From an uncultured bacterium (lineage in GTDB: Bacteria; B130-G9), in contig CBDVDH010000035.1 of assembly GCA_965372715.1 (NCBI GenBank), forward strand, positions 1 to 40,645: a stretch of DNA of 40,645 bases, given 5' to 3'. The position numbers and the translations under genes were made by a program. The first letter of the stretch is position 1. The number at the start of each line of letters is the position of its first letter. The notes below the pieces were generated by a model that made no database searches, had not been told where the DNA came from, and saw only the letters and a list, made by a program, of their open reading frames with translations. Positions 1 to 33,695 of this stretch are shown in pieces.

Positions 1-176
1 AACGCCTTAACCTGCGCGGGGGACTGCGTGCCATTCCTCTCCGCAAAGAGCACGTTGTAGTTCTGATCGCTTTTGAAAGGTGGGTCCAAGTAAATCAGGT
101 CAACCGACTCATCCGTGACGTGTAGCCTCAGCACCTCCAGATTGTCGCCGTAGTAGAGCACGTTCTTATCTTGCAT
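1..176 (-). CDS. 5' part of a third DNA methyltransferase copy (runs off the window)
   Basis: ATG at 176; reads MQDKNVLYYGDNLEVLRLHVTDESVDLIYLDPPF...; nt 1-176 identical to 1517-1692 and 3036-3211. Confidence 0.85.
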   Translation of the reverse strand, partial: MQDKNVLYYGDNLEVLRLHVTDESVDLIYLDPPFKSDQNYNVLFAERNGTQSPAQVKA

Positions 177-213
177 CCTCAAATCCTTACGGCTATGTAG
201 AATTACCGTCACT

Positions 214-1692
214 TCAATCGAATACGTTGTTTGAGTCGTCGGCGTCGTTATTCTTGGCTCTCTGAGCCTTCTTGAAGGTAACGTTGGTTCGCTTAAGCGG
301 CGGACAATCGACGCCTTTGCCGCGCAGGATGTCCTCAATCGTAAGAATCTGAATGCGCGGATAGCGCTTCTGCCAGACTGTCGATTCATAGAAACCGGCG
401 CCTGCCGCCTCCCCTCGCATGTCCTTCGTTGGGTCGAGCATCGTTATCAGGACACCGATCTCCGCGCCCTCCCGCTCAATCACACCCCGCAGATCGCGTA
501 TCATGTACGACGTAACGTGACCCGACTTGACTGAGAAGACGATCTGCTTGGTTTTACCGCCCTTCGCCTCGTCATGGAAATAGAGCCGTCCGTCAATGCC
601 CTTGTCGGACCCTTTCTTCTCCTCAACGGGCCTTGCGCCCAACAGGCCCAGCGCCCACCATTGAAACTGATACGGATTCTCCTTCGCCAGTTGCATCGCG
701 CCGGAGATGGAGACCGGCTCGCCAATCACCTCATACTCCTTCTTGATCTCCTCACCGAACGTGTTCTCAAGTCGGTATTTCATGAGCGTTACGGCCAAAT
801 GCGTTATGTCGATGCCGATCCAGCGGCGATTGAGGCGCTGGGCGACGGCGACCGTCGTGCCACATCCGCAGAACGGGTCGAGAACCAGATCGCCCTCGTT
901 GCTGGAGGCGCTGATAATCCTCTCGAGCAGGCGTTCAGGCTTCTGCGTCGGGTAGCCAAGTCTCTCCTTAGCTGAAGGCATGACGGGCTGCATTGTCCAA
1001 ACGTCGTCAGGATGCTTGCCCTGAGGATGTGGCTCGTAGGAATCATAGACTTTGTCCCCCCGAAAAGCCTTTGCCTTGTACTTCAACCTCTCCGCAGTAT
1101 CTGACGAATACGGCGTCCGAACCGCGTCAACGTTAAATGGTCGCTTGGCGGTCTCTGTCTTCGAATAGAAGAGGATCACGTCATGGCGCCGACCGAAGCG
1201 ACGCTTGGATACTCCGCCTCCACGGTAGTACCAAACGATTTCGTTCTGGAGATTCTGGGGCCCAAACACAGCATCCATAATCAGCCTCAGATGCGCACTC
1301 GCAGTTGGATCGCAGTGCAGGTATATGCTTCCGGTGGGCTTCAAAACACGCCTAAGCTCGATGAGGCGCGGCGCCATCATAGATAGGTAGGCGAGCATAT
1401 CGCTGTCGCCCAGGAGCTTCCTGAAGCCCTGCATAGCCTGGGAGACCTTGCCGCCTCTCTCCACGACCTCCTCGTATGCCTCAGCTGACTCCATGTCCCA
1501 CGTCCAAGTATCCTTAAACGCCTTAACCTGCGCGGGGGACTGCGTGCCATTCCTCTCCGCAAAGAGCACGTTGTAGTTCTGATCGCTTTTGAAAGGTGGG
1601 TCCAAGTAAATCAGGTCAACCGACTCATCCGTGACGTGTAGCCTCAGCACCTCCAGATTGTCGCCGTAGTAGAGCACGTTCTTATCTTGCAT
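214..1692 (-). CDS. beta-class N6/N4 DNA methyltransferase with C-terminal Mrr-like nuclease-fold domain (copy 2, 492 aa)
   Basis: True start is the MQDKN ATG at 1692 (the ORF track over-extends to 1905); DPPF motif IV, YPTQKP, LDPFCGCGTT motif I; C-terminal DKGIDG...FSVKSG. Confidence 0.9.
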   Translation of the reverse strand: MQDKNVLYYGDNLEVLRLHVTDESVDLIYLDPPFKSDQNYNVLFAERNGTQSPAQVKAFKDTWTWDMESAEAYEEVVERGGKVSQAMQGFRKLLGDSDMLAYLSMMAPRLIELRRVLKPTGSIYLHCDPTASAHLRLIMDAVFGPQNLQNEIVWYYRGGGVSKRRFGRRHDVILFYSKTETAKRPFNVDAVRTPYSSDTAERLKYKAKAFRGDKVYDSYEPHPQGKHPDDVWTMQPVMPSAKERLGYPTQKPERLLERIISASSNEGDLVLDPFCGCGTTVAVAQRLNRRWIGIDITHLAVTLMKYRLENTFGEEIKKEYEVIGEPVSISGAMQLAKENPYQFQWWALGLLGARPVEEKKGSDKGIDGRLYFHDEAKGGKTKQIVFSVKSGHVTSYMIRDLRGVIEREGAEIGVLITMLDPTKDMRGEAAGAGFYESTVWQKRYPRIQILTIEDILRGKGVDCPPLKRTNVTFKKAQRAKNNDADDSNNVFD

Positions 1693-1729
1693 CCTCAAAT
1701 CCTTACGGCTATGTAGAATTACCGTCACT

Positions 1730-3211
1730 TCAATCGAATACGTTGTTTGAGTCGTCGGCGTCGTTATTCTTGGCTCTCTGAGCCTTCTTGAAGGTAACGT
1801 TGGTTCGCTTAAGCGGCGGACAATCGACGCCTTTGCCGCGCAGGATGTCCTCAATCGTAAGAATCTGAATGCGCGGATAGCGCTTCTGCCAGACTGTCGA
1901 TTCATAGAAACCGGCGCCTGCCGCCTCCCCTCGCATGTCCTTCGTTGGGTCGAGCATCGTTATGAGGACACCGATCTCCGCGCCCTCGCGCTCAATCACA
2001 CCCCGCAGATCGCGTATCATGTACGACGTAACGTGACCTGACTTAACTGAGAAGACGATCTGCTTGGTTTTACCGCCCTTCGCCTCATCGTGGAAATAGA
2101 GCCGGCCATCGACGCCTTTATCAGCACCCTTTTTCTGCTCAACGGGCCTTGCGCCCAACAGGCCCAGCGCCCACCACTGGAATTGATACGGATTCTCCTT
2201 TGCCAGCTGCATCGCGCCGGAGATCGACACTGGCTCGCCGACCACCTCGTATTGGCTATTGATTCCCTCACCGAATGTGTTCTCAAGTCGGTATTTCATG
2301 AGCGTAACGGCCAAATGCGTTATGTCAATGCCGATCCAGCGACGATTGAGGCGCTGAGCAACGGCCACCGTCGTGCCACATCCGCAGAACGGGTCGAGAA
2401 CCAGATCGCCCTCGTTGCTGCTCGCCGTGATAATCCTCTCCAAGAGCGACTCAGGCTTCTGCGTCGGGTAGCCAAGCCGCTCTCTGGCCTGAGAGTTGAT
2501 TACAGAAATGTCCCATACATCGTCCATGGGTGCCCCGGGAGATACTTCCTTGGTCATCTTTGTAACCTGTCGCATCCCATTCTTAAACTCGACCCGGCTC
2601 TTGTGTCCGCGCCAACGTCTAAGTGTGCCTTTCGTCAATGGCTCCAGTAGAACGTTGAAAGTGTTCTTGCCGTGCTGGTTACTGTAGAATAGCAGTACAT
2701 CGTGCATTCTTTGAAACTGAAATTTGCCAGCGGGCCAGCGCTTGTAATGCCAGATTGCCTCATTTCGGAAGTTCTCTGTTCCGAAAACCGCATCCATAAG
2801 CAGCCTTAGGTGTGCGCTGGCTGTCGGGTCGCAGTGCAGGTATATGCTCCCGGTGGGCTTCAAAACACGCCTAAGCTCGATGAGGCGCGGCGCCATCATG
2901 GACAGGTAGGCGAGCATATCGCTGTCACCCAGGAGCTTCCTGAAGCCCTGCATAGCCTGGGAGACCTTGCCGCCTCTTTCCACGACCTCCTCGTATGCCT
3001 CCGCTGACTCCAGGTCCCAAGTCCAAGTATCTTTGAACGCCTTAACCTGCGCGGGGGACTGCGTGCCATTCCTCTCCGCAAAGAGCACGTTGTAGTTCTG
3101 ATCGCTTTTGAAAGGTGGGTCCAAGTAAATCAGGTCAACCGACTCATCCGTGACGTGTAGCCTCAGCACCTCCAGATTGTCGCCGTAGTAGAGCACGTTC
3201 TTATCTTGCAT
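1730..3211 (-). CDS. beta-class N6/N4 DNA methyltransferase with C-terminal Mrr-like domain (copy 1, 493 aa)
   Basis: Same motifs as copy 2; different central TRD segment; RBS-like AGGGGG upstream. Confidence 0.9.
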   Translation of the reverse strand: MQDKNVLYYGDNLEVLRLHVTDESVDLIYLDPPFKSDQNYNVLFAERNGTQSPAQVKAFKDTWTWDLESAEAYEEVVERGGKVSQAMQGFRKLLGDSDMLAYLSMMAPRLIELRRVLKPTGSIYLHCDPTASAHLRLLMDAVFGTENFRNEAIWHYKRWPAGKFQFQRMHDVLLFYSNQHGKNTFNVLLEPLTKGTLRRWRGHKSRVEFKNGMRQVTKMTKEVSPGAPMDDVWDISVINSQARERLGYPTQKPESLLERIITASSNEGDLVLDPFCGCGTTVAVAQRLNRRWIGIDITHLAVTLMKYRLENTFGEGINSQYEVVGEPVSISGAMQLAKENPYQFQWWALGLLGARPVEQKKGADKGVDGRLYFHDEAKGGKTKQIVFSVKSGHVTSYMIRDLRGVIEREGAEIGVLITMLDPTKDMRGEAAGAGFYESTVWQKRYPRIQILTIEDILRGKGVDCPPLKRTNVTFKKAQRAKNNDADDSNNVFD

Positions 3212-3229: not shown

Positions 3230-3934
3230 TCAGCATCGCGTCTGGTTCCGGTTCGTTTCTGCTCGCGGATTATCGGCATTCATCAACGGGCGGAGCAGTG
3301 CCCGGACTGGGGCGCCGTCGGGCACGTCGATCCTCAGCGGTAAGCATAGGAGCTCATAGCTGCCAGGGGCAACCTGCGAGAGGTCCAGGCCCTCGAGAAT
3401 CAGCACGTCGCGGGCAAGAAGCGTCCTGTGTGTTTCAACTCCAGACGACCCCATCTGCCCTATTGAGAGATAATCAATCCCCACGAGCGACGCGCCAAGC
3501 TCGGCAAGGAACTCCGCGCCGTCTGGAGTCAAATAGACGTAGTTGCGGTTGAAGTCTGCTTGCGAAATGAGCTTGGAGTTCCTGGTCTTGAGAAGGACCC
3601 GCTCTTCGTGTGCGATCTCTTTCCCAGCGAGCGTCTCGGCGTCGATGCACACCTCGCATTCAGTGCAATCAAGAACGCAGCATTCGCCGACAAGTCGCGA
3701 CAGGTCAATCTGCGGCAGCGTCCGCCCCCCTCTGATTATATGTGCTGGGGCATCGATATGTGTGCCGGAGTGGCTGCCCATGCAGAACCTGTGGACAACC
3801 GCGGCATCCTCTGCGCTTGCGCCCTTGATCTTCTCGATCTCGACCGTCGGGTCGCCAGGATATGTAACCGTCTGCAGCGACAGCGGCAGAGAGATGTCAA
3901 TCAACGGAGCCTGAGAGCTATTCTTCGACGGCAC
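3230..3934 (-). CDS. Cyclase family metal-dependent hydrolase (KynB/arylformamidase-like)
   Basis: HSGTHIDAPAH motif, VGIDYLS, ILEGL, DGAPVRA. Confidence 0.88.
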   Translation of the reverse strand: MPSKNSSQAPLIDISLPLSLQTVTYPGDPTVEIEKIKGASAEDAAVVHRFCMGSHSGTHIDAPAHIIRGGRTLPQIDLSRLVGECCVLDCTECEVCIDAETLAGKEIAHEERVLLKTRNSKLISQADFNRNYVYLTPDGAEFLAELGASLVGIDYLSIGQMGSSGVETHRTLLARDVLILEGLDLSQVAPGSYELLCLPLRIDVPDGAPVRALLRPLMNADNPRAETNRNQTRC

Positions 3935-4700
3935 TCTTGCGAGGTCTTCCTCTTTTCTTGGCGGGCTTTCCTCCCACGAGCCTCAACCTGTAGTCATCCG
4001 CCTTGATCTCGACTAACTTGCACATCTCGTAAAGCCGCGAACGCAACCGCACTCCTATTCTGTCCTGAAGCGTCTCCGTGGCTCTTGTAAGGCCGCTCTT
4101 TTGGGCCCCAGCATCCATGAAATTGGTCGTGATGATCATGGCTTTTTTGTGGTTGTAGCGATGATTGATGATGAAGCCCAGCCTATCACGAACCCAATCG
4201 CTAATCCGCTCCGCCCCCAGGTCATCCAAGACCACGACGTCAGTCTCCAAGACAGGCGACAAAACGTCGCTCTCGGAAGTCTCCCCCTTGGGGTCCGAAT
4301 AGGTCTCCTTGATCTCGCCAAGAAGAGACCGGAAATCGACAAAGAGGCATGGCACGCTCTTTGTTGAAACCATCTCCTTCACTATCGCGACGGCAAGATG
4401 TGTTTTGCCCACACCAGACCCTCCCATGAAAAGCAGGCCGTCGCGTTTGGCCGGATATGCTCTCACGAAATCCTCCGCAGATTTCTTGGCCTCTCCAAGG
4501 CTGACATTGTTCGCTATATCGAAGTCATTGAAGCTGCAATGCGAATAGCGCTGGGCGATATTCGCCTGAGAAAGCAGAATGTTCTGCCTCAAGCTCTCGT
4601 AGCAGTCGCAGCGGAACGCCTCCTCGCCCTCTATCACCCAACCAGTGTCGTTACAGCGCTCGCATCGAGGGCCTTCAGAATCGTAATGCGAATCCGTCAT
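3918..4700 (-). CDS. DnaC/IstB-like AAA+ ATPase with N-terminal Zn-binding motif
   Basis: CERC..CDC, Walker A GGSGVGKT, Walker B VVLDDLG, IITTN, RLRSRLYEM. Confidence 0.88.
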   Translation of the reverse strand: MTDSHYDSEGPRCERCNDTGWVIEGEEAFRCDCYESLRQNILLSQANIAQRYSHCSFNDFDIANNVSLGEAKKSAEDFVRAYPAKRDGLLFMGGSGVGKTHLAVAIVKEMVSTKSVPCLFVDFRSLLGEIKETYSDPKGETSESDVLSPVLETDVVVLDDLGAERISDWVRDRLGFIINHRYNHKKAMIITTNFMDAGAQKSGLTRATETLQDRIGVRLRSRLYEMCKLVEIKADDYRLRLVGGKPAKKRGRPRKSAVEE

Positions 4701-4711
4701 TGAGCTCCCGC

Positions 4712-5005
4712 TTATTCGTTCTTTATGACCCTCGGCACGCGGAAATAATCGCCCTGCCGGTCAGGCGCCATCCCTAAAGCCACGTCCTGGGGCAGGCCCG
4801 GCCGACATTCGTCCTCGCGAAACACGTTCGTCAGGTTCTGCGTGTGCGCGGTTGGCGGCACGTCGGAAAGATCAAGCTCGTTCAGCTTATCAACGTAGGC
4901 GATGATCCGCAGAAGCTGGCGGCTGAACGTCTCCTTTTCCGCCTCGCTGAGCTCAATCCCGGCTAGCCCCGCAAGGTATTCAACCTGCTCCTTTTTTATT
5001 TCCAT
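4712..5005 (-). CDS. gatC: Asp/Glu-tRNA amidotransferase subunit C
   Basis: 97 aa; VEYLAGLA..L, LNELD, PTAH, NVFRED, YFRVPRVI are typical of GatC. Confidence 0.93.
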   Translation of the reverse strand: MEIKKEQVEYLAGLAGIELSEAEKETFSRQLLRIIAYVDKLNELDLSDVPPTAHTQNLTNVFREDECRPGLPQDVALGMAPDRQGDYFRVPRVIKNE

Positions 5006-5009
5006 CCGA

Positions 5010-8000
5010 TCAATTCACGGTAAGATATGGATATATGGCGCTCGAGTTCAAAGAGCTGTCGAACGCCACGACCTCCAGCGTCATGCAGCCCGGCGCAAGC
5101 CCTCCGGGCATCAGTATCTGGAACGTGTAGATGCCGTCCCCGGCAAAGTCATCGCCGTCTATGCCGTCGTCATTGAAGAAGAAACCCGTCGGGACCCCGC
5201 CCTCGAGAAACAGCTCGACGCGGTCGATGTCGGATAGGCCGTCGGGATCAGAAACAAACGCAACTATCTTCATGCTCTCGCCAGGACCGACGGTTTCGCG
5301 TCCAAAGAAGCCGCCGCCCAGAATAACTGGCGCTCCGTCCGCCGTCATCGCCGGCTGCCAGACATCCACGTTCATCTGCGACAGTTCGCTTGGCAAGGCC
5401 AACGGGCCGGACAGCACGTTCAGATACGGCCAGGATGTGCTCTGGTTGCCGGCGGCGTCCGTCGCTACAAGCTCCACACGGTAATTCCCAGGGCCGATCT
5501 CGCCAGGCGCCATCTGCGCAAGACACGTGAAGATGCCATCACCAGGGAGGTCGTCCGGCTCAAGGCCGTCGTCGGTCAAGAAAACGCCCAAGGGAATGCT
5601 CCCGTAACACGCCTCGACAGTCTGCACGTCGGAAAGGCCGTCAAGATCGACAACGAACGCCTGCATCCCAAACTCGAACCCCGTGGCGGAATTGACGCTG
5701 GCCTCAAGATAGCCGGCCGCGTATATCTGTGGCGCGACGGAGGGCGCCTCCCCAGGCGTGAACTCTAGCACAAAAGAGTCCCTTGCTGGGATCGCCACGT
5801 AGTTCTCATAGCTCTCCACGTGCTTCCAGGCGCCACCACTCTTCTTGTTCACATCAACGCTAATTGTTACAAACTGCTTAACACAGACGGTGTCCTCATT
5901 CGAGAAAACGATGTAGTAGCTCTCCGACGGGGTCTCGGCGTTGAAACTGTCGCCCGGAGAATCGGTGCGCCACTCATGCGCCTGAAAAGCCTCATCGTTC
6001 TGATACTTGTCATACTCGTCAGAGCTGACGATGAAGAAATCAACGTTGCCGGCTTTCTCCTTGTGCCCGAAGGACCCCGCGCTGATGCTGTAGAGCATCT
6101 CAAACTCCACGTTGTAGGTGAAGTCGAGTCGGTATTCACGCTCGCCCACTGGGAACTCTACGCTCTGAATCGGTGGCAGCGTCGGCATCAGGCCCTCCTC
6201 AATGACCCAAGTGTGAGAATACTGCTCACCTGCTACAGTACCGGTTAGAATCTGAGCGTCGCCCACGTTGCCGACCCGGCTCCTGACGTTCATCCAGAAG
6301 TCCCTGTTGTTGCCCAGGTCTATCAAGACTTCTCCAGTAGAATCCGTGTAGGACACAATCGCGGTCCCCAGACCATAGGCGGGGTTATTATTGTAATAAA
6401 CCTTCACTGTTATCTCCGCTCCGTCCACAGGATTGTGATTTAGGTCCTCGACCCTCGCACGGAGCGTGCAGACCTTGCTGAATCTCTTGGTCGCGTTGAC
6501 AGGATACGTGTCGCCCCTGTCCTGCGAGATCGCGGAGAGGTCCTTGCTGCCGCCGAAGTCCTTGTCATAAAGCACGCTCTGCTTGGCAACGGAAGTGTGG
6601 TTGCCGTTCCAGTCAACTTGGTACCCATGCCAATCCCCCTCCCAGAACTCGTTCGTAACGTGGTCCCAGGTGTGGTTGTTGACGCCGGCGCACGGCAGGA
6701 GGCAGGCTCTCGCTGCGGCGTTCATCAAGTCCTGAATCTCGCCGCAGTTGCCGTTATGCTCGAAGCATATCTGATTGGCCTGGATTGGCCGGTTGCCTCT
6801 CGCTCTGAAAGGCAGATTCCTGCACACCCAGTTGCCGACAACATCCACCGCCATGCTGTTGGGCTCAAATGGTCTGAAGGCGGCCAGCGAGGCATTCACG
6901 ACGCTGTCGTCCCAAAGGTGGCTCGCGTTCCCTATCACTTCCTGCAGCGTGGGATAACGACCTATACCAACCTCGTTAATCGTCTCAGGGACGTACCCCA
7001 AACCGAATGGCAAGTCGAGATCGCCCCAAGCGTTCTCAGGAGCGCACGCCCCATGGAACTGGAACGTTACGTAGCTCGCCGCCATCCAGCTGCGAATCCG
7101 GGACACGACGGTTTCGTCCGCCAGCGCCTCGTAAAAGGCGCGGCTCTGATTCGAGGCGACGATGACCTTACTGCACCGACTCCAGAATCGAATTATGAAG
7201 TCGTCGGACGTGAACATCTCATAAGGGATGTCGTTGTTCTCCAAGATTTCCTGAATCGGGCCGACTATATTGGGGTCGCCGGTGTCATCGAGTATGCCTA
7301 CCCAGTCGCTTGGTATGAGCATCTCGCTCGCAATGCCGTTAGAACGCATAACGAGATTCTGAAGCATCTTGGTCTTGCCCGTAGCGTAGGCCTGCTCCGC
7401 GTCCATCGTCGTAACAATCACGCGCGACATGCTCCAGGGATACTCACAAAGGAGCGGCTTTTCAGCGTCGGACCGGGCCATCAAGATGGCGGCCCGATAG
7501 CCCTTGTAACCGTCGGTCAGGTAACCCGTCGCGGACGGGCCCCAACTATCGACGTCAGCGTCCGTTATCCAGTTGGGCGTCTTGTTCACGTAGTAGTTTG
7601 TGTAGTCGTATTCCTCGGATGGATTGTAGAACAGGTATTCGCGCCAGAGGTAGCCGTAGGTGCTGGTCCTATCGGTAATCGCGGGACTCATTGAGGGGTG
7701 CTCATCGCCGTGCTTCGGGTGAACCACAAACCAGTAGTAGATGTCCCTCGGCAGCTCATATTGGCCCATTACGCCGCCGCGTATCGTGTTGTATCGCACG
7801 GTGGAGTAGTAATCGAGGTCCTGTCCAGGGACGCCATAGTCAACGATGTCCGCATAAGCGACCTCGGCGTCTATCTGATACAGAAGCTCCGCGTTTCTAA
7901 TGAGCAGCTGCGGATCGCCTCTGGTCAGGACGCTTTTAGAAGAGTGCGCAATCGTGAAAGCCACCTCGTCTATGAGCCTGAGGTCTGTGATGTCGAGAAG

Positions 8001-8360
8001 CAGCTGGCCAAAGTCTTCCTGCTGCGAAGTGGTCATGCGGACGAACATGTCGTAAACGTCCATTCGCAGCCACTCGGGAACCAGCAGGAGCGCGTCCTCC
8101 GCCTGAGGCGCGATCGGCGTTCCCGGGCCGACCTCGTTCACGAAACTGCCGTCCCCATTCAGCGGAACAGGCAACCCTGCCCCGACTGCGCCAGAAACGA
8201 CGCCCAACTCGCCGAAATCAACGTCCGTCTCGGCCCAGGCCGGCCCCCCCGTCGGCCCACGAAGGACCTCGGCCGGAAGCTCAATGTCAGAGGCGAGCAG
8301 TCCCACGCTGCACGCCATGAGCGTCACGGCAATCGGGAGCATCAATTGAATCTTCCTCAT
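5010..8360 (-). CDS. Large secreted transglutaminase-like domain protein with two C-terminal DDG...GDG(I)(F/Y)T repeat domains
   Basis: Signal peptide; GNCGE / DHVTNE / QVD putative Cys-His-Asp triad; duplicated C-terminal module DDGxxxDDxxGDGI. Confidence 0.7.
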   Translation of the reverse strand: MRKIQLMLPIAVTLMACSVGLLASDIELPAEVLRGPTGGPAWAETDVDFGELGVVSGAVGAGLPVPLNGDGSFVNEVGPGTPIAPQAEDALLLVPEWLRMDVYDMFVRMTTSQQEDFGQLLLDITDLRLIDEVAFTIAHSSKSVLTRGDPQLLIRNAELLYQIDAEVAYADIVDYGVPGQDLDYYSTVRYNTIRGGVMGQYELPRDIYYWFVVHPKHGDEHPSMSPAITDRTSTYGYLWREYLFYNPSEEYDYTNYYVNKTPNWITDADVDSWGPSATGYLTDGYKGYRAAILMARSDAEKPLLCEYPWSMSRVIVTTMDAEQAYATGKTKMLQNLVMRSNGIASEMLIPSDWVGILDDTGDPNIVGPIQEILENNDIPYEMFTSDDFIIRFWSRCSKVIVASNQSRAFYEALADETVVSRIRSWMAASYVTFQFHGACAPENAWGDLDLPFGLGYVPETINEVGIGRYPTLQEVIGNASHLWDDSVVNASLAAFRPFEPNSMAVDVVGNWVCRNLPFRARGNRPIQANQICFEHNGNCGEIQDLMNAAARACLLPCAGVNNHTWDHVTNEFWEGDWHGYQVDWNGNHTSVAKQSVLYDKDFGGSKDLSAISQDRGDTYPVNATKRFSKVCTLRARVEDLNHNPVDGAEITVKVYYNNNPAYGLGTAIVSYTDSTGEVLIDLGNNRDFWMNVRSRVGNVGDAQILTGTVAGEQYSHTWVIEEGLMPTLPPIQSVEFPVGEREYRLDFTYNVEFEMLYSISAGSFGHKEKAGNVDFFIVSSDEYDKYQNDEAFQAHEWRTDSPGDSFNAETPSESYYIVFSNEDTVCVKQFVTISVDVNKKSGGAWKHVESYENYVAIPARDSFVLEFTPGEAPSVAPQIYAAGYLEASVNSATGFEFGMQAFVVDLDGLSDVQTVEACYGSIPLGVFLTDDGLEPDDLPGDGIFTCLAQMAPGEIGPGNYRVELVATDAAGNQSTSWPYLNVLSGPLALPSELSQMNVDVWQPAMTADGAPVILGGGFFGRETVGPGESMKIVAFVSDPDGLSDIDRVELFLEGGVPTGFFFNDDGIDGDDFAGDGIYTFQILMPGGLAPGCMTLEVVAFDSSLNSSAIYPYLTVN

Positions 8361-8771: not shown

Positions 8772-9161
8772 ATGTCGAAAGAGATAGCAAAACTTGAGCA
8801 GTATGTCGTGACGGACGACCGCGTTTGCGGGGGCAAACCCAGGGTTGCTGGAACTCGCATCAAAGTCCAGCAGATCGTCCTGGAGTATGAGCAACTCAAT
8901 ATGACGCCGGATGAGATTTGTGACGCTCATCCTCGCCTGACGCTCGCCGCGGTGCATTCCGCAATCGCCTATTATTACGACCATCAGAATGAGATTCTTC
9001 AGGCAATCCGGGACGACGAGACATTCGCCGAGTCTTTCACAGAAAGGAATTCAGAGCGAAATGGCGAAAGAAATCATCTTCCAGGTCCAGGAATCCCCGG
9101 AAGGCGGATACGAGGCGTGGGCGCTAGGTCATTCCATCTTCACCGAGGCCGACACGGGTGA
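8772..9161 (+). CDS. DUF433 domain antitoxin-like protein with read-through C-terminal tail
   Basis: VCGGKPRVAGTRIKV...HPRLTLAAVHSAIAYY; the last ~33 codons overlap the next gene out of frame. Confidence 0.85.
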   Translation: MSKEIAKLEQYVVTDDRVCGGKPRVAGTRIKVQQIVLEYEQLNMTPDEICDAHPRLTLAAVHSAIAYYYDHQNEILQAIRDDETFAESFTERNSERNGERNHLPGPGIPGRRIRGVGARSFHLHRGRHG

Positions 9162-9270
9162 AGAGCTGAGAAAGGCTGTAGCCGAGGCGGTCCGCTGCCA
9201 TTTTAATGAGCACAAGGTGCCGAGCGTGATCCGATTGCATTTCGTTGCCGAGGAAGTCCTAGTTCCATGA
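9061..9270 (+). CDS. HicB-like small antitoxin (69 aa)
   Basis: MAKEIIFQVQESPEGGYEAWALGHSIFTEADT..EL...EAVRCHF; start 9061 preferred over 8989. Confidence 0.75.
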   Translation: MAKEIIFQVQESPEGGYEAWALGHSIFTEADTGEELRKAVAEAVRCHFNEHKVPSVIRLHFVAEEVLVP

Positions 9271-11407: not shown

Positions 11408-11608
11408 CTAAACTTGACCTAGCGCCCTTAAGTGCAAGAGTATCCATTCCTCGAGAACTTCTTCCAACTGGTTGCGGCAGGCCCCGAGTGTCTTTGCGTT
11501 GGCCCAGACGCCTTTGAAGCCCGGGACCTCGCCGAACAGCGTGCTATCGTCGGAAAGTATCTCGTAATGGGCTTTCCCCATTGCCGCCTGGATGTCATCC
11601 CTCAACAT
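11408..11608 (-). CDS. HicB family antitoxin-like protein, probably 3'-truncated
   Basis: AMGKAHYEIL.DD..FGEVPGFKGVWANAKTL.ACR.QLEEVLEEWILL; no partner HicA visible. Confidence 0.75.
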   Translation of the reverse strand: MLRDDIQAAMGKAHYEILSDDSTLFGEVPGFKGVWANAKTLGACRNQLEEVLEEWILLHLRALGQV

Positions 11609-14068: not shown

Positions 14069-16645
14069 CTACAGAAACGGGAGCTTGCTGCTGCCGACGT
14101 TCTTGAGCGTTATTGAGAGCGAGAATTGGGTATCCTGACGTGTTTCTTTCTCCCACTTCCCATCGACAGTTCCCCATTGGAATTGGGTCTCGTGGCCAGC
14201 GAAAAACGTGAGGGACCAGCACTGCGAGTGATAGACCACAGTGTAGTTGTTTTGGTTGAACATTTCTTCAGCGATGTTGTATTTGACGGTTGTATAAAAC
14301 TCCCATTTCGGATGAGGCGCGCAGCCCAGCTCCGCGGTCAGGTAGCGAGTATCGGCATAGCTGCTATCGTCGCTGGTGGTGTCAGTCTGCGGGCGGAAGA
14401 AGTCAATTGAGCGGAATCGGAGCTCCGCCCGCCAGCTTTCCTTTCTGTATTTGGCGGCGAGTGTGTAGTTAGAGATGCGGTTCTTGTGGGGATTGTAGCT
14501 GAGCTGCGCGTCAGCGTCGAACGTCGCGGTAGGGCGCGCGGTCGCAGACGCTATAACGTCAGAGAATGGGCTGTAATCCGACCTCCACGGACTGTAAACA
14601 TCTTTCTTGAGATATCCCGCAACCTTGAGGTCATAGCTCTGGCGGAGTGTGATGGTAAGAAGGTCTCGATAGTCAGTTTTGGGCTCACCATCGTCGGTCG
14701 GCTTGATGATCTTGGCTCGCAGACGATTGGTGAGTGAATATGTCATGGCGCTCCTGCCCCACAGGTCGCCGGTTATCATCCCGATGTAGTCTGTGTTATC
14801 GTAGTTGAGCGGATAGTTGTATCCGAGGATATTGACCTGATAGAGCAGAGACTGGTTGACGGCGGGGATGTAGTCGAACCTAACAGCGGGGGTGATCAGG
14901 TGCTCCACCTTGTCTATGTCGCCCCATCCCGAGAATGAGAATATCCGGTGAACCGACGGGCCAGAGCAGCTGAGAGTGCAGTCGTAAATCTCCCTTCGCA
15001 CGTCGTTGCCGTGGCGAACCACCCTCTCGAAGAGGCGCTCCTTGTCGAATATCTTCCCGTCCTTCCGGCCGGTTATCGCCTCGGAGTTATCGGCGATGAA
15101 CGAGTAGGTTTTGACCTTACCCAACCGAACGCCATGGAGCCGCACGTCCAGGTCCGACAGGTCCATCGATGAATCGAGATACCACGTCGTCCTGAAACCC
15201 ACACGCCCGGTTATCGAGAGCCACTGGCCGATGTTTAGCGGGTAGGTTAGCTGCGGATAGAAATCGAACCTGTTGGTCTTCCTCTCTATTGGCACCTGAC
15301 CAATTAAGAAACTGGAGGTCTGGGCGAGGCTGGCGGCCTGTGCCGAGAACTGGAAGAACACGGGCGTGCCCCATATCGGCTGCTTCATGCTGACGAGGTT
15401 GATCTCCGGGAGCTTTTGCAGGATCGTGTCGGTCGGGTCATCTTCGTCCAGGCCCTCGATGTGCAAGACATTCGCCGAGAAGTAATACTGGGACCAGCTC
15501 TTGGTTACTGAGATTTCGGAGACGACCTGCTGTGGCCGGTCCGACAGAAGATACACGTAGTCGTCTCCGAAGTGCTTGTCGCTGACGTAGTTGATGTTGG
15601 CGGTTCCCCTGAATCCCTTGCCGAGGTCCTGGGTGTGTTGGAGGCTGACCTGCCAGCGCTCGGAGGGGTTGTTGACAAAAGATGTCGTGTCGTAGGCTTG
15701 CTTGGCGAGCTTCTCGGACACGTGAAAGGCATAGAAGTTGCCTCCCGCCGTCGGCGACAAGACATACCTGAACTCCAGCGACTGTGCCGACGTCCCCTCG
15801 TCGTAGTATTCGAGCGAGAACGTCGCGTCAGTGTTGTCCGTGATTGCCCAAAAAAATGAGCTCCTGAGGTAATTGCCAAGCCGCGAGCTGCTGCCGAACT
15901 CCGGCATCAGAAGGCCCGTCGTCCTGTCGGGCTTGATGGGGTATATCCAGTAGGGCAGATAGATGACGGGCATTTTCTTGACCCACATCGAGCCGTGCGA
16001 CAAGTAGATGTAGTTATCCACGTGGATCGTCGCCTTCTTCATTTTGAAGGACCAGTCGGGGACCTCCTGTGAGCACGATGTGAACGTCCCCCGGTGAACT
16101 CGGTATTTGTCCAGCTTGAAGCGCTCCAGTTTCTCGGCAGTCAGAAAAAACGACGGCGCCAGGAACGCCTGCGCCGAATAGACCTTCGCGAGTCGCGTTT
16201 TTAGGTTCATCTCGAGCCTATCGCCGACGATCCTGTTCTCCAGGTATTCCAGTATGATGTTGCCGGTTGCGACCGTTTCCATGGTCCGCCTGTTGAACGT
16301 TATCTTATCGGCGCGTAGCCTGATCTCGCCAAACCGGATATCGACGGCGCCCTCCAGCGTCGCTATCCCGGTCTTGGCGTCGTAATGCTGCCTGATTGCA
16401 TACACCTCGACCGTGTCTTCTTTCTCGGCCATCTTCAGGAACTCGTCCTGCATCTTCTCAGCCCTTGTGAAGAGCTTCGTCTGCGCGCTCGCAGGGTGAA
16501 TGATGAGAACGAATGAGAGGAAGGTCAGACACACAAGCAGGATGCGCCGCGCGGGGCGGGGGAGCTGCGGGTGCGACCTTTGATAGTGGGTAGAGCTCTG
16601 GTCATCACGACCGCGTTTCAACGCGGTCATATAGAAGGCTCTCAT
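14069..16645 (-). CDS. lptD: LPS-assembly protein LptD-like outer-membrane protein (start uncertain)
   Basis: Signal-like segment, OstA-like N-domain (RLRADKI, FTSC..PDW), RTTGLLMPEFG, C-terminal beta-barrel with SQCW. Confidence 0.85.
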   Translation of the reverse strand: MRAFYMTALKRGRDDQSSTHYQRSHPQLPRPARRILLVCLTFLSFVLIIHPASAQTKLFTRAEKMQDEFLKMAEKEDTVEVYAIRQHYDAKTGIATLEGAVDIRFGEIRLRADKITFNRRTMETVATGNIILEYLENRIVGDRLEMNLKTRLAKVYSAQAFLAPSFFLTAEKLERFKLDKYRVHRGTFTSCSQEVPDWSFKMKKATIHVDNYIYLSHGSMWVKKMPVIYLPYWIYPIKPDRTTGLLMPEFGSSSRLGNYLRSSFFWAITDNTDATFSLEYYDEGTSAQSLEFRYVLSPTAGGNFYAFHVSEKLAKQAYDTTSFVNNPSERWQVSLQHTQDLGKGFRGTANINYVSDKHFGDDYVYLLSDRPQQVVSEISVTKSWSQYYFSANVLHIEGLDEDDPTDTILQKLPEINLVSMKQPIWGTPVFFQFSAQAASLAQTSSFLIGQVPIERKTNRFDFYPQLTYPLNIGQWLSITGRVGFRTTWYLDSSMDLSDLDVRLHGVRLGKVKTYSFIADNSEAITGRKDGKIFDKERLFERVVRHGNDVRREIYDCTLSCSGPSVHRIFSFSGWGDIDKVEHLITPAVRFDYIPAVNQSLLYQVNILGYNYPLNYDNTDYIGMITGDLWGRSAMTYSLTNRLRAKIIKPTDDGEPKTDYRDLLTITLRQSYDLKVAGYLKKDVYSPWRSDYSPFSDVIASATARPTATFDADAQLSYNPHKNRISNYTLAAKYRKESWRAELRFRSIDFFRPQTDTTSDDSSYADTRYLTAELGCAPHPKWEFYTTVKYNIAEEMFNQNNYTVVYHSQCWSLTFFAGHETQFQWGTVDGKWEKETRQDTQFSLSITLKNVGSSKLPFL

Positions 16646-16824
16646 TGTCCTAACACCCGACTTCGAGTCGGGTGTTCTGGAAGCCGAGTCGCAACCCTAC
16701 TCCTCCCCGAGATCTTGATCTGAGGAGGATGGAGAGAAGGGTGTCGAGTTCTGGGGTCTCCCGATTGAAATCGGGAGTTAACACAATGATAGCCAATCTG
16801 TCGCCTCGGCTGAAGCCGGGCGAC
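16609..16824. repeat. Four-hairpin palindromic element, copy 1
   Basis: Hairpins at 16609-16628, 16652-16676, 16758-16777, 16800-16824; homologous to 23944-24166. Confidence 0.85.
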
Positions 16825-23883: not shown

Positions 23884-24330
23884 GTAGGGGCGCGGTCTCA
23901 GACCTGAAAACTATACGCATATTCTGAGGGTATGTTCCTCTGAATCACCGCGTTTCAACGCGGTGATATTGATGGTTATCATCATATTAACACCCGACTT
24001 CAGTCGGGTGACAGGTGGACGCCCGATAGCCTCCTCCTCACTCCAAAGAATCCCCTCCTGAAAAGGATGTAGGGAGGGTGGTGGCCTCCTCTTCAGACCC
24101 CCGAATCAATTCGGGGGTTAGGACAATGATAGCCCTTTGCATCGCCTCGGCTGAAGCCGGGCGATGAGTGTCGGACATGTGCTCCCGCCGGCAGATCCGA
24201 ATCACCCCATTTCGCACGTCGTTACTGCTGCTATTCCCCTTTGGGGAATGCGATTTATGGAACTCACTAAACAGCCCTCATTAACCAAAATATATGCGCA
24301 CAACTGTCAGGTTCGAGACCACGCCCCTAC
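23884..24330. repeat. GTAG-type REP inverted pair enclosing ~400 bp
   Basis: GTAGGGGCGCGGTCTCAGACCTGA (23884-23907) versus TCAGGTTCGAGACCACGCCCCTAC (24307-24330). Confidence 0.8.
23944..24166. repeat. Four-hairpin palindromic element, copy 2
   Basis: Hairpins at 23944-23967, 23991-24010, 24097-24118, 24140-24166. Confidence 0.85.
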
Positions 24331-25600: not shown

Positions 25601-28600
25601 ATGAACATCTATGAAGCCCTTCAGGTATTCGCCGAGACCGTTAAGGCCAAGATGGGATTGATGACTCCCGGCGAACCCGAAGATCAACTGCGAGGACCGT
25701 TTGAGAACTTCATGACCGAAGCTGGACGGGCCTTGGGGGGCAACGTTGCTTGCAAAGGTGAGACGCCGCTTGCCGATCGGCTTGGTAAGCCAGACTATGC
25801 CGTTCACGTGAAGGGTTTGCTCGCTGGCTTCGTCGAACTAAAAGCGCCCGGACTTGGGGCGAATCCCAAAGACTTCCGCCGCCACAATAAGGATCAGTGG
25901 AAACGCTTCCGGCTGCTGCCAAATCTCATTTATTGCGACGGGAACGAATGGGCGCTCTATCGCAAGGGCGAAGTCGTCCACAAGTTGGTGCGCCTATCCG
26001 GGGACGTGACAGTAAAGGGGCGTAAGGCCGTTAGCACAGAGGATGCCCGCGCGCTCGAACGCCTGCTACGTGGGTTCTTATCCTGGGAGCCTAGTATCCC
26101 GATCGACCGGAATGGCGAGATTGACCTAAAGCGCTTCGCTGACCAGCTGGCCCCCCTCTGCGGAATGTTGCGCGATGACGTAACCGACGCGCTCCAAGAT
26201 CAGAAGTCTCCGCTCGTCCAACTCGCCCAGGATTGGCGCCAACTGCTCTTTCCAGACGCCTCGGATGAGCGATTCGCCGACGCGTACGCTCAGACTGTCG
26301 CGTTCGCCCTGCTTCTCGGGAGGAGCGAGGGCGCGGACCCGCTGACGCTTGACAGCGCCGAGAACGCTCTCAGCGCACAGCATACACTGCTTTCACGTGC
26401 ACTCCGCCTCCTGACCGACCCACAGGCTCGTCCTGTGATGTCGGCCTCCGTGGACCTCCTGTTGCGGGTTATCGCTCTCGTGCCTCACAGGGCCCTGACC
26501 GGGGCCGCAAGCCGTTGGCTTTATTTCTATGAGGACTTCCTTGAGGCCTACGACCCCAAGCTGCGGAAGGACGCGGGGGCGTATTACACGCCCGTCCAGG
26601 TTGTGCGAGCCCAGATCCGGCTGATCGATGACCTGCTTGTGAACCGTCTCGGCAAGCGGCTCGGTTTCTGCGACCCAGGTGTCGTAACTCTGGACCCCGC
26701 CGCCGGGACCGGCACGTATCTACTCGGTGTGATCGAGCACGCACTCAGTAAGGTTGAAGCTGAACAGGGTGCCGGGGCAGTGCCGGGCCAGGCTTCCACG
26801 CTCGGGGCCAATCTCTATGGTTTCGAGTTCATGGTTGGTCCCTTCGCCGTTGCGGAGCTCCGGGTCAGCCAGGCCTTGCGGGATTCCGGGGCGAGGATGC
26901 CGCAAGACGGGCCTCGGGTCTACCTGACTGACACCCTGGAAGACCCTGCTGCCAAAGCAGCGCAAGTATCCTTGCCACTCAAGCCTATCGCCGATCAGCA
27001 CGCCAAGGCGCTAGCAGTCAAGAAAGATGTCCCTGTGATCGTGTGTTTGGGCAACCCGCCCTACGACCGCCACGAGGCCGCAAACGAGAATAACAAGGCC
27101 CGGACTGGAGGGTGGGTCCGATGGGGCGATGACGGCAAGGGAAACCGGTCGATCGAAGCGAAGATCCCTAAAAGTGTTCCGGCAATCTTCAACGATTTTG
27201 TTTTTCCTGCCGTCCAGTCCGGTCTTGCCCTCCACATGAAGAACCTCTACAACCTCTACGTCTATTTTTGGCGCTGGGCACTGTGGAAGGTCTTCGAGTG
27301 CGCCGCCACTCCGGGCCCTGGGGTGGTCAGCTTCATCAGCGCATCGAGCTATCTCGACGGCGATGCATTTGTTGGTATGCGCGAGCACATGCGTCGCCTA
27401 TGCGACGAAATCTGGATTCTAGACCTGGGAGGCGAGGGACGCGGCACTCGCAGGAGCGATAACGTTTTCACCATCCAGACGCCCGTAGCCATAGCCGTAG
27501 CTGTTCGGTCGGCAAACCCGAACCAGGACCAGCCGGCTAGTGTGCGCTACGCCCGTATCGAGGGCTCTCGGCAGCGCAAGCTCGGCGAGCTGGAGTGCAT
27601 TCGCGATTTCGCATCGGTGAAATGGGTCGACTGTCCCCAGGAGTGGCAGGTGCCCTTCCGTCCTGCCGGAAAGGGACGATACTTCGACTGGCCGCTTCTG
27701 ACTGACCTCATGCTGCCATGGCAGCCCACGGGGGTGATGGCGGGCAGGACGTGGGTGATCGGTCCAAGCACAGAATGCCTTTCAGCTCGCTGGAGCGCGC
27801 TGCTTGGCATTCCAGCGCGGAAGCGAGCCGGCTCATTTATCGACAACGCCACTGGACGCAAGATCACTGACCACGCCTTGAGCTTGTATCCGCCGCGTCG
27901 GAAGCTCAAGCCAATTCGAGAGCTCCCACGCGACACGCCCTGCCCGGAGATTAGACAGGTTGGCTTCCGCGCTTTTGACAGGCAATGGTTGATCGCAGAC
28001 GGCCGCATGATTGACAGACCCTGCCCAGACCTCTGGCGTGCACATGGGCCCAAGCAGGTTTATATGGCAAGCTGTGTAGTTCTCGAATTGGGCCGAGGTC
28101 CGGCTGTTACTTCCACGGGGCATATTCCTGATCGACATTTCTTTGCGGGCAGAGGCGGAAAGGACATCATCCCCCTGTACCGTGACAGTGAGGCGACGAA
28201 ACCGAACATCCTCCCCGGCCTGCTGGAACTGCTTGGCAAATCCTACGAGCGACAGGTGACTCCAGAGGATTTTCTGGCCTATGTCTATGGCGCGCTTGCG
28301 CAGCCAGCTTTTACGGAGCATTATTGGAAAGAGCTGGAGACGCGAGAGCTAAGAGTGCCGATCACGAAGAAGCCTACCTTATTTGAGAAAGTCCGCGTCA
28401 TTGGAGCGAAGCTGCTCTGGCTGCACACATACGGCGAGAGGCTTGTTCCACCGGGGAAGCAGCGAGGCCAGGTCCCTTACGGTGCCGCGAAGTGCACTGA
28501 AGCCGTCCCCGGGGACGAGGACGGCTATCCCGAATCGTTCGAGTACAATGACTTGACGCAGACGCTCCACGTCGGGGCCGGAGGGTTCCGGCCCGTGTCG

Positions 28601-28933
28601 CCCGAGGTCTTCGAGTTTGAGGTCTCAGGATTAAAGGTCGTGCAGTCCTGGCTGAAATACCGCATGAAGAAAGGCGCGGGTAGGAAGTCCTCGCTGCTGG
28701 ACGATATCCGCCCTGAGCGCTGGACTAGCCAGTTCACGACGGAACTGCTTGAGCTGCTCTGGGTGCTTGAGGCGACCGTCGCGGGGTATCCAGAACAGGA
28801 AAAGCTCTTAGAAGCGGTCGTCAGCGGCCCCTGTTTTCGCGCGGACGAGCTGCCACCAGTTCCCGAAGAAATGCGCAACCCGGCCCCGGCGCGTCGCCCA
28901 AGAGGCTCAGAAACAATCAAAGGCACGGCTTGA
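25601..28933 (+). CDS. Type IIG/ISP-like restriction-modification fusion (PD-ExK nuclease, N6-adenine MTase, LlaBIII-like C-terminal specificity domain)
   Basis: KPDY...VELK, GAYYTP, LDPAAGTGTY, GNPPY, FRAFDRQW; no helicase motifs. Confidence 0.88.
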   Translation: MNIYEALQVFAETVKAKMGLMTPGEPEDQLRGPFENFMTEAGRALGGNVACKGETPLADRLGKPDYAVHVKGLLAGFVELKAPGLGANPKDFRRHNKDQWKRFRLLPNLIYCDGNEWALYRKGEVVHKLVRLSGDVTVKGRKAVSTEDARALERLLRGFLSWEPSIPIDRNGEIDLKRFADQLAPLCGMLRDDVTDALQDQKSPLVQLAQDWRQLLFPDASDERFADAYAQTVAFALLLGRSEGADPLTLDSAENALSAQHTLLSRALRLLTDPQARPVMSASVDLLLRVIALVPHRALTGAASRWLYFYEDFLEAYDPKLRKDAGAYYTPVQVVRAQIRLIDDLLVNRLGKRLGFCDPGVVTLDPAAGTGTYLLGVIEHALSKVEAEQGAGAVPGQASTLGANLYGFEFMVGPFAVAELRVSQALRDSGARMPQDGPRVYLTDTLEDPAAKAAQVSLPLKPIADQHAKALAVKKDVPVIVCLGNPPYDRHEAANENNKARTGGWVRWGDDGKGNRSIEAKIPKSVPAIFNDFVFPAVQSGLALHMKNLYNLYVYFWRWALWKVFECAATPGPGVVSFISASSYLDGDAFVGMREHMRRLCDEIWILDLGGEGRGTRRSDNVFTIQTPVAIAVAVRSANPNQDQPASVRYARIEGSRQRKLGELECIRDFASVKWVDCPQEWQVPFRPAGKGRYFDWPLLTDLMLPWQPTGVMAGRTWVIGPSTECLSARWSALLGIPARKRAGSFIDNATGRKITDHALSLYPPRRKLKPIRELPRDTPCPEIRQVGFRAFDRQWLIADGRMIDRPCPDLWRAHGPKQVYMASCVVLELGRGPAVTSTGHIPDRHFFAGRGGKDIIPLYRDSEATKPNILPGLLELLGKSYERQVTPEDFLAYVYGALAQPAFTEHYWKELETRELRVPITKKPTLFEKVRVIGAKLLWLHTYGERLVPPGKQRGQVPYGAAKCTEAVPGDEDGYPESFEYNDLTQTLHVGAGGFRPVSPEVFEFEVSGLKVVQSWLKYRMKKGAGRKSSLLDDIRPERWTSQFTTELLELLWVLEATVAGYPEQEKLLEAVVSGPCFRADELPPVPEEMRNPAPARRPRGSETIKGTA

Positions 28934-33548: not shown

Positions 33549-33695
33549 TGGGGCGGGCTTTCCAGCCTGCTATGCCGTAGGGGCGGTGCTTGCCCCGCCC
33601 TTCGTGCGTTCGGTCAAATCAGGGAAGGGCGGGGCAAGCACCGCCCCTACACAACCGCAACAACTTACCTCTCAGCCTCCAAGCACCGCCCCTAC
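33549..33695. repeat. REP cluster: GTAG REP doublet plus extra half-copies
   Basis: Perfect inverted pair 33577-33650 (GTAGGGGCGGTGCTTGCCCCGCCC); half copy 33680-33695; GGGGCGGGCTTTCCAGCCTGC near 33550. Confidence 0.85.

Follow-up and report, generated by a model that had tools for sequence, protein, structure and literature searches.

Tandem genes for a methyltransferase fused to a nuclease-fold domain, with homogenised ends and different putative target-recognition segments, in an uncultured bacterium

How does a bacterial chromosome come to carry, head to tail, genes that are identical at their ends and highly divergent in the middle, and what might such a set do? This question is raised by the edge of contig CBDVDH010000035.1 (NCBI GenBank assembly GCA_965372715.1) of an uncultured bacterium of the GTDB lineage B130-G9, whose 40,645 nucleotides (nt), here called the window, are the entire contig C35 of the source genome, G000. 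Two full-length genes at this edge, units A and B, encode a DNA methyltransferase joined to a C-terminal domain of nuclease fold, and their conserved scaffold surrounds a variable central segment, the putative target-recognition domain (TRD), so named from its place in the motif order of beta-class methyltransferases, between motifs IV-VIII and X-I. The units stand in tandem, their number changes among related genomes, the trees of scaffolds and TRDs disagree, and the locus probably serves defence as a repertoire of DNA-recognition specificities that expands and contracts.

Tandem units and their homogenised ends

A first-pass annotation, made from the sequence alone, had proposed at least three head-to-tail gene starts with an identical 37-nt spacer, and two full genes followed by the 176-nt start of a third were confirmed (Table 1). 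Sequence comparison also bore out that the first 176 nt are common to the three copies and that positions 1-447 equal 1517-1963, with zero mismatches between these blocks and the first mismatch at 448. Exact identity of A and B covers the first 176 nt and the last 234 nt of the genes. The window stops at the first difference between A and B, so that only 176 nt of the third copy are visible and its TRD lies out of view. Mismatches were said to rise inward toward a highly divergent central segment, and they do: identity per 100 alignment columns runs 100, 96, 97, 91, 58, 52, 51, 67, 91, 87, 91, 87, 98, 100, 100 and 100%, that is, 100% at the ends and ~51-67% in mid-gene. Identity between the units is 96% over the N- and C-terminal parts, against 34% over the central segment, for which the peptides quoted earlier read as stated. 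The repeats of the array are direct; no inverted repeat linking units was present among the 25 longest of 129 inverted pairs.

Table 1. Features of the array and its upstream flank in the window (aa, amino acids; ORF, open reading frame)
Feature	Position	Strand	Remarks
Unit A: beta-class DNA methyltransferase with C-terminal Mrr-like PD-(D/E)xK-fold domain	1730..3211	-	493 aa, TRD type a; ORF, Pfam, AlphaFold2 model
Unit B: architecture as unit A	214..1692	-	492 aa, TRD type b; ORF, Pfam
Start of third unit, 58 codons	1..176	-	ends with the contig where A and B first differ (gene nt 177)
37-nt spacer between A and B	1693..1729	-	ribosome-binding-site-like stretch (read from sequence); homologous spacer at the G001 tandem junction
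37-nt spacer between B and third start	177..213	-	identical to spacer 1693..1729
Junction block 1: A end, spacer, B start (447 nt)	1517..1963		identical to 1-447
Junction block 2: B end, spacer, third-unit start	1..447		identical to 1517-1963
Putative TRD (variable segment) of A	2486..2761	-	~aa 151-242; identity 92% with the slot unit of G003 and 34% with B
Putative TRD (variable segment) of B	970..1242	-	~aa 151-241; 89-91% identical to G001 unit 1 and the last G002 unit
Mrr-like nuclease-fold domain of A	1787..2239	-	~aa 325-475; motif D364-x-G-x-D368-G ... S388-V-K390
Mrr-like nuclease-fold domain of B	271..723	-	ORF translation and Pfam
Upstream slot flank: gatC, DnaC/IstB-like ATPase, cyclase/arylformamidase-like gene	3230..5005	-	same strand as the units; short gaps or overlaps

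Synonymous divergence (dS) separates the history of the ends from that of the interior. Between A and B it amounts to 0.41-0.56 in the inner scaffold and 0.02-0.03 at the gene ends. The inner value is as large as the distance of A or B to the second unit of the sister species G001 (0.36-0.47), so the two lineages are old. The C-terminal end (C-end) has diverged from G001 (dS 0.25-0.27), and the last 234 nt hold no difference between A and B and 17 to G001; the C-end and the spacer were therefore copied recently. Comparable arrays occur in a 4.0-Mb single-chromosome record (G042), where two tandem pairs have C-terminal parts 89-100% alike and different TRDs, and in a Desulfococcaceae genome (L167), where the scaffold of a three-unit array is mostly 87-100% alike. 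Leaving aside the first 100 nt, the TRD and the final block, the three units of G043 are only 58-75% alike, and homogenisation is thus not universal.

The chromosomal slot and its recognition types

The array occupies a slot inside a housekeeping gene run, in the order gatC-dnaC-cyclase-[units]-ilvD-sirtuin, and several genera of the host's family have units in this slot. The gatC-dnaC-cyclase order of the window recurs in G001 and G003, and dnaC and the cyclase gene are adjacent in G002, G004, G005 and G006; on the downstream side, relatives carry ilvD, a sirtuin gene and an elongation-factor-G-like gene (the last label read from sequence). The fusion gene family is present in six of six other genomes of the host's family, versus one of 34 outside it. 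Among the seven genomes of the host's family the slot holds 0, 1, 2 or more units. It contains at least two in the source genome and two in G001, where the units are ~70% alike, the spacer between them is homologous and another copy of it closes the contig. In G002 a first unit without the nuclease domain precedes an intact one, on two contigs that overlap by ~118 nt with one mismatch. One unit lies on a contig spanning the slot in G003, and at least one is present in G006. G004 has none, the cyclase gene standing directly before ilvD on one contig, and in G005 one contig bears a start-end scar of 19 codons, another a gene end with ilvD. Additionally, a contig from sequencing run X2 (record 9; labelled salt marsh), belonging to a relative, crosses a gene end, spacer and gene start. 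Together with the slots of the relatives, this junction means that neither the tandem layout nor the change in copy number is peculiar to the source assembly. One sequence, P0005, joins the start of the first G002 unit to the rest of its last unit; it represents either a contraction or an assembler skipping a loop, and it was not counted.

Five TRD types were distinguished among the nine slot units with a readable central segment. Type a is shared by A and the G003 unit, and type b by B, G001 unit 1 and the last G002 unit (identities in Table 1); type c belongs to G001 unit 2, type d to the first G002 unit and G006 (100% identical), and type e to L096. The order of types differs between genomes: type b comes first in G001, second in G000 and last in G002, and it sits on scaffolds only 74% alike. 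A tree of 39 scaffolds unites tandem partners (A and B with support 99/97, the three L167 units 100/100, the L199 pair 100/100 and the L112 pair 100/93), whereas the TRD tree, built by a quick search, splits them. Between A and the G003 unit, dS is 0.71 in the TRD, 1.25-1.58 in four neighbouring scaffold regions and 0.60 at the C-end. Recurring TRDs have a ratio of nonsynonymous to synonymous divergence (dN/dS) of 0.04-0.06, and the adjacent units examined in the TRD comparison all differ in TRD. Across the wider family, 155 central segments fell into 67 single-linkage clusters at 50% identity, five of 160 sequences being left out for lack of the regular-expression anchors. The G+C content of the TRDs, 0.50 and 0.54 against 0.55-0.57, is at most a weak foreign signal. 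The contents of the slot and its TRD types across relatives, the disagreement of the trees and the homogenised ends support the earlier proposal of an expandable array with gain, loss and shuffling of TRDs.

A separate scaffold clade (G000:C75, G001:C3, G002:C23 and G003:C106) carries two alternative TRDs, 77% and 89% identical within pairs, and TRD swapping in a second scaffold lineage is thereby indicated at the sequence level.

The fused protein and the competing readings

Units A and B belong to a family defined by the fusion of N6_N4_Mtase with Mrr_cat/NA-iREase1 (PF01555 with PF04471/PF22722); the Pfam match to N6_N4_Mtase has E 2e-48, and both NA-iREase1 and Mrr_cat exceed the cut-offs in the C-terminal part. 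The motif DPPF (aa 31-34), the variable segment and then F275-x-G277-x-G279, invariant in 110 of 110 sequences, follow each other in the order that marks a beta-class methyltransferase. An AlphaFold2 model of A built from 110 sequences reached a pLDDT (predicted local distance difference test) of 89, and VIA-align placed it closest to CcrM (Z 26.6; root-mean-square deviation, rmsd, 2.1; 220 aligned), M.RsrI (Z 26.2) and M.BceJIV (Z 26.1), so the methyltransferase part, as modelled, has a beta-class fold. The modelled aa 327-476 resemble AF1548 (Z 10.6; rmsd 2.7; 100 aligned), AspBHI (Z 9.9) and MspJI (Z 9.7). Foldseek of the model against the PDB returned only methyltransferases among the matches listed, and sequence searches of the PDB gave no nuclease match; a model of the nuclease domain folded alone without an alignment had a pLDDT of 36 and was not used. 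All 156 distinct full-length homologues compared share the residues D364, G366, D368, G369, K390 and G392, and aa 321-415 have a dN/dS of 0.011-0.055 in seven pairs, the lowest of the regions that differ at the protein level. Both domains are under purifying selection and A and B are full-length; the nuclease-fold domain is maintained, and cutting is a prediction.

We consider it fairly likely that these are single-gene, restriction-modification-like units with specificity in the central segment, in which homologous recombination swaps TRDs, unequal crossover changes the number of units and deletions remove them. Each unit would consist of a conserved scaffold around an exchangeable target-recognition segment, and crossover or conversion in the conserved motifs flanking the TRD would swap specificity. 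Unequal crossover between units would add or remove whole units and copy the end-spacer-start junction with them, which would explain why the junction block is nearly identical and why identity falls toward the non-homologous TRDs; internal deletions would kill units. No match to a tyrosine recombinase (PF00589) lies on C35 or C49 among five, serine recombinases being outside the search and the gap between the contigs unseen. Each unit most likely methylates a motif of its own and, in the manner of a one-protein restriction-modification enzyme, may cleave DNA that lacks this methylation. As the units are full-length, closely spaced and apparently co-transcribed, their specificities would be additive and not switched. 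Dimers are frequent among beta-class enzymes and, by analogy, near-identical co-expressed scaffolds might form mixed dimers with new specificities. A bolder version, which we put forward only tentatively, is that the family forms an undescribed one-gene class of restriction-modification system with a swappable central TRD as its only specificity module, and that some lineages keep junction-homogenised accordion arrays drawn from a shared TRD pool as an additive, evolvable immune repertoire.

Several results weigh against this reading. The third catalytic position, 388, is Ser in 107 of the 156 homologues, A and B included (Gln in 47, Glu and Arg in one each), and the best C-terminal Pfam match, NA-iREase1, is named 'inactive'. 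The first 176 nt differ from G001 at only 3 nt, which makes the identity of the starts weak evidence of homogenisation. A promoter and terminator scan around the units gave nothing above shuffle level; that they are co-transcribed is read from gene spacing only. A search for raw or long reads from the source organism was negative (the best run contains 0.16 of the words), leaving the copy number unconfirmed, and no third protein with an identical C-end was present among the 27 matches of a C-end search. Finally, arrays are rare: four loci have several copies out of 160 examined, which comprise the best 80 among 593 metagenome candidates and the best 80 among 603 genome candidates. In two orders where the family is found in 16 of 81 and five of 81 genomes, adjacent matches are confined to the two genomes picked because they are tandem, with none in the other 15 and four family-bearing genomes.

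The serine and the family name also feed a rather unlikely alternative in which the units only methylate, each its own motif, and the nuclease fold is structural or binds DNA; they would then be orphan methyltransferases, serving as an anti-restriction shield or epigenetically. Phage methylases commonly serve anti-restriction, and 28 phage records out of 50,697 contain the fusion family. Against this alternative, the gene adjoins an integrase or a repressor in the five phages examined (L231-L235), a position typical of lysogen-expressed genes. In four of them, integrase-encoding Streptomyces phages (Likavirus), it keeps one gene position next to the integrase, with a different TRD in each; in Marinitoga phage MPV1 the fusion gene lies behind a repressor. 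The two aspartates and the lysine of the domain are invariant, the domain is under strong purifying selection, and the 47 homologues with Gln have the QxK of Mrr-type enzymes, a variant that, in the accessible part of its description, the active fusion BtgZI also has (PMC4081073).

The family extends over many phyla, archaea and phages. Arrays are recurrent and found in unrelated taxa but sporadic, and most members are solitary; a locus flagged as multi-copy (L149) proved to be one frameshifted gene and was dropped. The source genome has ten family genes, namely A, B and eight elsewhere, one of these frameshifted; the seven others, extracted whole, each have their own central segment. The frameshifted copy (G000:C30:32190-33801) is broken near aa 130, and a start-end deletion scar on the same contig (G000:C30:39872-39979) joins ~37 start codons to a gene end. 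A second slot (rpiB...glyA, labels read from sequence) holds two units in G001 (L022, G001:C87, 4604-7887), the 176-nt gap between them resembling a copy of the upstream gene's end, and one in G000:C57:4940-6412.

Such turnover could also be selfish: addiction-like modules would insert themselves, duplicate and in time decay, and their tandem layout would be a by-product of recombination among many paralogues rather than a selected repertoire. Ten family genes in one genome, with the frameshifted copy and the C30 scar, the decayed units of G002 and G005, and the concentration of arrays mainly in genomes with several copies fit this account; it is nevertheless improbable as a full explanation, since one slot is kept across several genera, recurring TRDs are under purifying selection and recent neutral duplicates should often share a TRD, as the adjacent units examined never do. 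It is compatible with the swapping of TRDs between restriction-modification-like units that we favour, and the two are not exclusive.

The assembly itself sets limits on the copy number. Contig-end overlaps of the genome peak at 55 nt and the longest identical run inside A and B is 54 nt, from which we infer a de Bruijn assembly with k=55. With such an assembler, a few scattered differences within the 447-nt block may have been lost from view; the loss of 17 within 234 nt, the number by which A departs from the G001 unit, is unlikely. Four of 19 sequencing runs were examined closely and yielded contigs of related organisms, hence without depth or copy number for the source strain. The third unit probably does follow B; there is a smaller but real chance that this unit alone is an assembly loop, and no third close unit was found at another contig end of G000. 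Because ilvD begins contig C49 in G000, the rest of the array falls within an assembly gap. That short-read assembly merely joined strain alleles with different TRDs at a single-copy locus is very improbable: the inferred k, the contig stop exactly at the fork, the lack of any inner identical run of 55 nt or more in A and B and the missing reads would suit it, but several observations speak against it. What precedes A is unlike the end-spacer-start junction, which must come from reads, and the homologous spacer of G001 lies between units only ~70% alike, too different to be collapsed. A junction of this kind is also crossed in run X2 (record 9), and A and B each occur on two contigs, the longest 43,248 nt for both, 2.6 kb more than the window (possibly from the same reads).

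REP-like palindromes (repetitive extragenic palindromes) of the form GTAG...CTAC lie at window positions 33577-33650 and 23884-24330 and at the start of C49. Their 8-mer occurs 505 times versus ~166 expected, and such motifs stand at 48 of 224 contig ends; one of them probably breaks the assembly upstream of ilvD.

Relation to known systems, and significance

The closest parallel is the Type III Mod methyltransferase of Helicobacter pylori, for which Furuta and Kobayashi 2012 (PMC3467074), in the passages available, describe TRDs moving between paralogues by recombination in conserved flanks and report having seen no unequal recombination in Type III systems. Both are beta-class, with the TRD between motifs IV-VIII and, in Mod as described there, X-III, and in both the TRD and scaffold trees disagree. 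Unlike Mod, the units carry a C-terminally fused nuclease-fold domain and have no res gene beside the slot: no ResIII match lies on C35 or C49 among seven, and the G003 contig spans cyclase, unit and ilvD without res. The same passages cite tandem paralogue clusters of Staphylococcus aureus, in which conserved parts likewise serve as sites of unequal crossover; here the paralogues encode methyltransferase-nuclease proteins and vary in a putative DNA-recognition domain.

By architecture the units resemble BtgZI, a combined Type IIC enzyme that, as far as its description could be seen (PMC4081073), joins an N-terminal methyltransferase and a C-terminal PD-QxK-type nuclease in one polypeptide. 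However, BtgZI has an alpha-class methyltransferase, whereas that of the units is beta-class and A and B have SxK; the likeness is one of description, and cutting is predicted for the units. According to the same partial source, the canonical order of Type IIC/IIG enzymes is an N-terminal nuclease followed by a gamma-class methyltransferase, against the beta-class methyltransferase first and nuclease fold last found here. Type I hsdS shufflons, in the part consulted of Atack et al. 2020 (PMC7394358), also place several variable recognition modules at one locus and exchange them through repeats, but with inverted repeats, often a local recombinase and one expressed gene that is switched, whereas the array consists of intact genes in direct repeat. 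Silent-cassette gene conversion, with truncated or unexpressed donors and one expression site, differs from A and B, which are full-length and under purifying selection; the first G002 unit is truncated. The passages seen of two reviews (PMC12707154 and PMC10609329) do not mention a fusion of a beta-class methyltransferase with an Mrr-like domain, and no publication on the family's activity or arrays was found in listings and abstract beginnings, a search that stopped short of subscription papers, supplements and REBASE. What is known, then, is TRD exchange among methyltransferases, and what is new is fused methylase-nuclease units in an expandable, end-homogenised tandem slot.

Other features lie nearby. 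A 1116-aa protein (window 5010-8360, minus strand) with a transglutaminase-like core and an Ig-like domain is conserved upstream of gatC in G001 and G003. A Type IIG/ISP-like restriction-modification fusion of 1110 aa is encoded at 25601-28933 on the plus strand (Pfam Type_ISP_C; PADLOC REase_MTase_IIG, 1139 bits). Small ORFs at 8772-9270 (plus strand) and 11408-11608 (minus strand) presumably resemble antitoxin fragments (DUF433-like and HicB-like). Two diverged copies (83-84%) of 55- and 35-nt elements, at 16610-16794 and 23947-24134, stand ~7.3 kb apart and are possibly parts of a small repeat or mobile element.

The array offers a natural matched set of near-identical scaffolds with different recognition segments, through which motifs can be assigned to TRDs unit by unit, and this set can test whether DNA is cut by a fusion family that is large and apparently uncharacterised. 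If so, single-chain restriction-modification enzymes would gain another class, one with programmable specificity, and the slot would be a case, from an uncultured bacterial lineage, of restriction repertoires that ordinary recombination enlarges and reduces.

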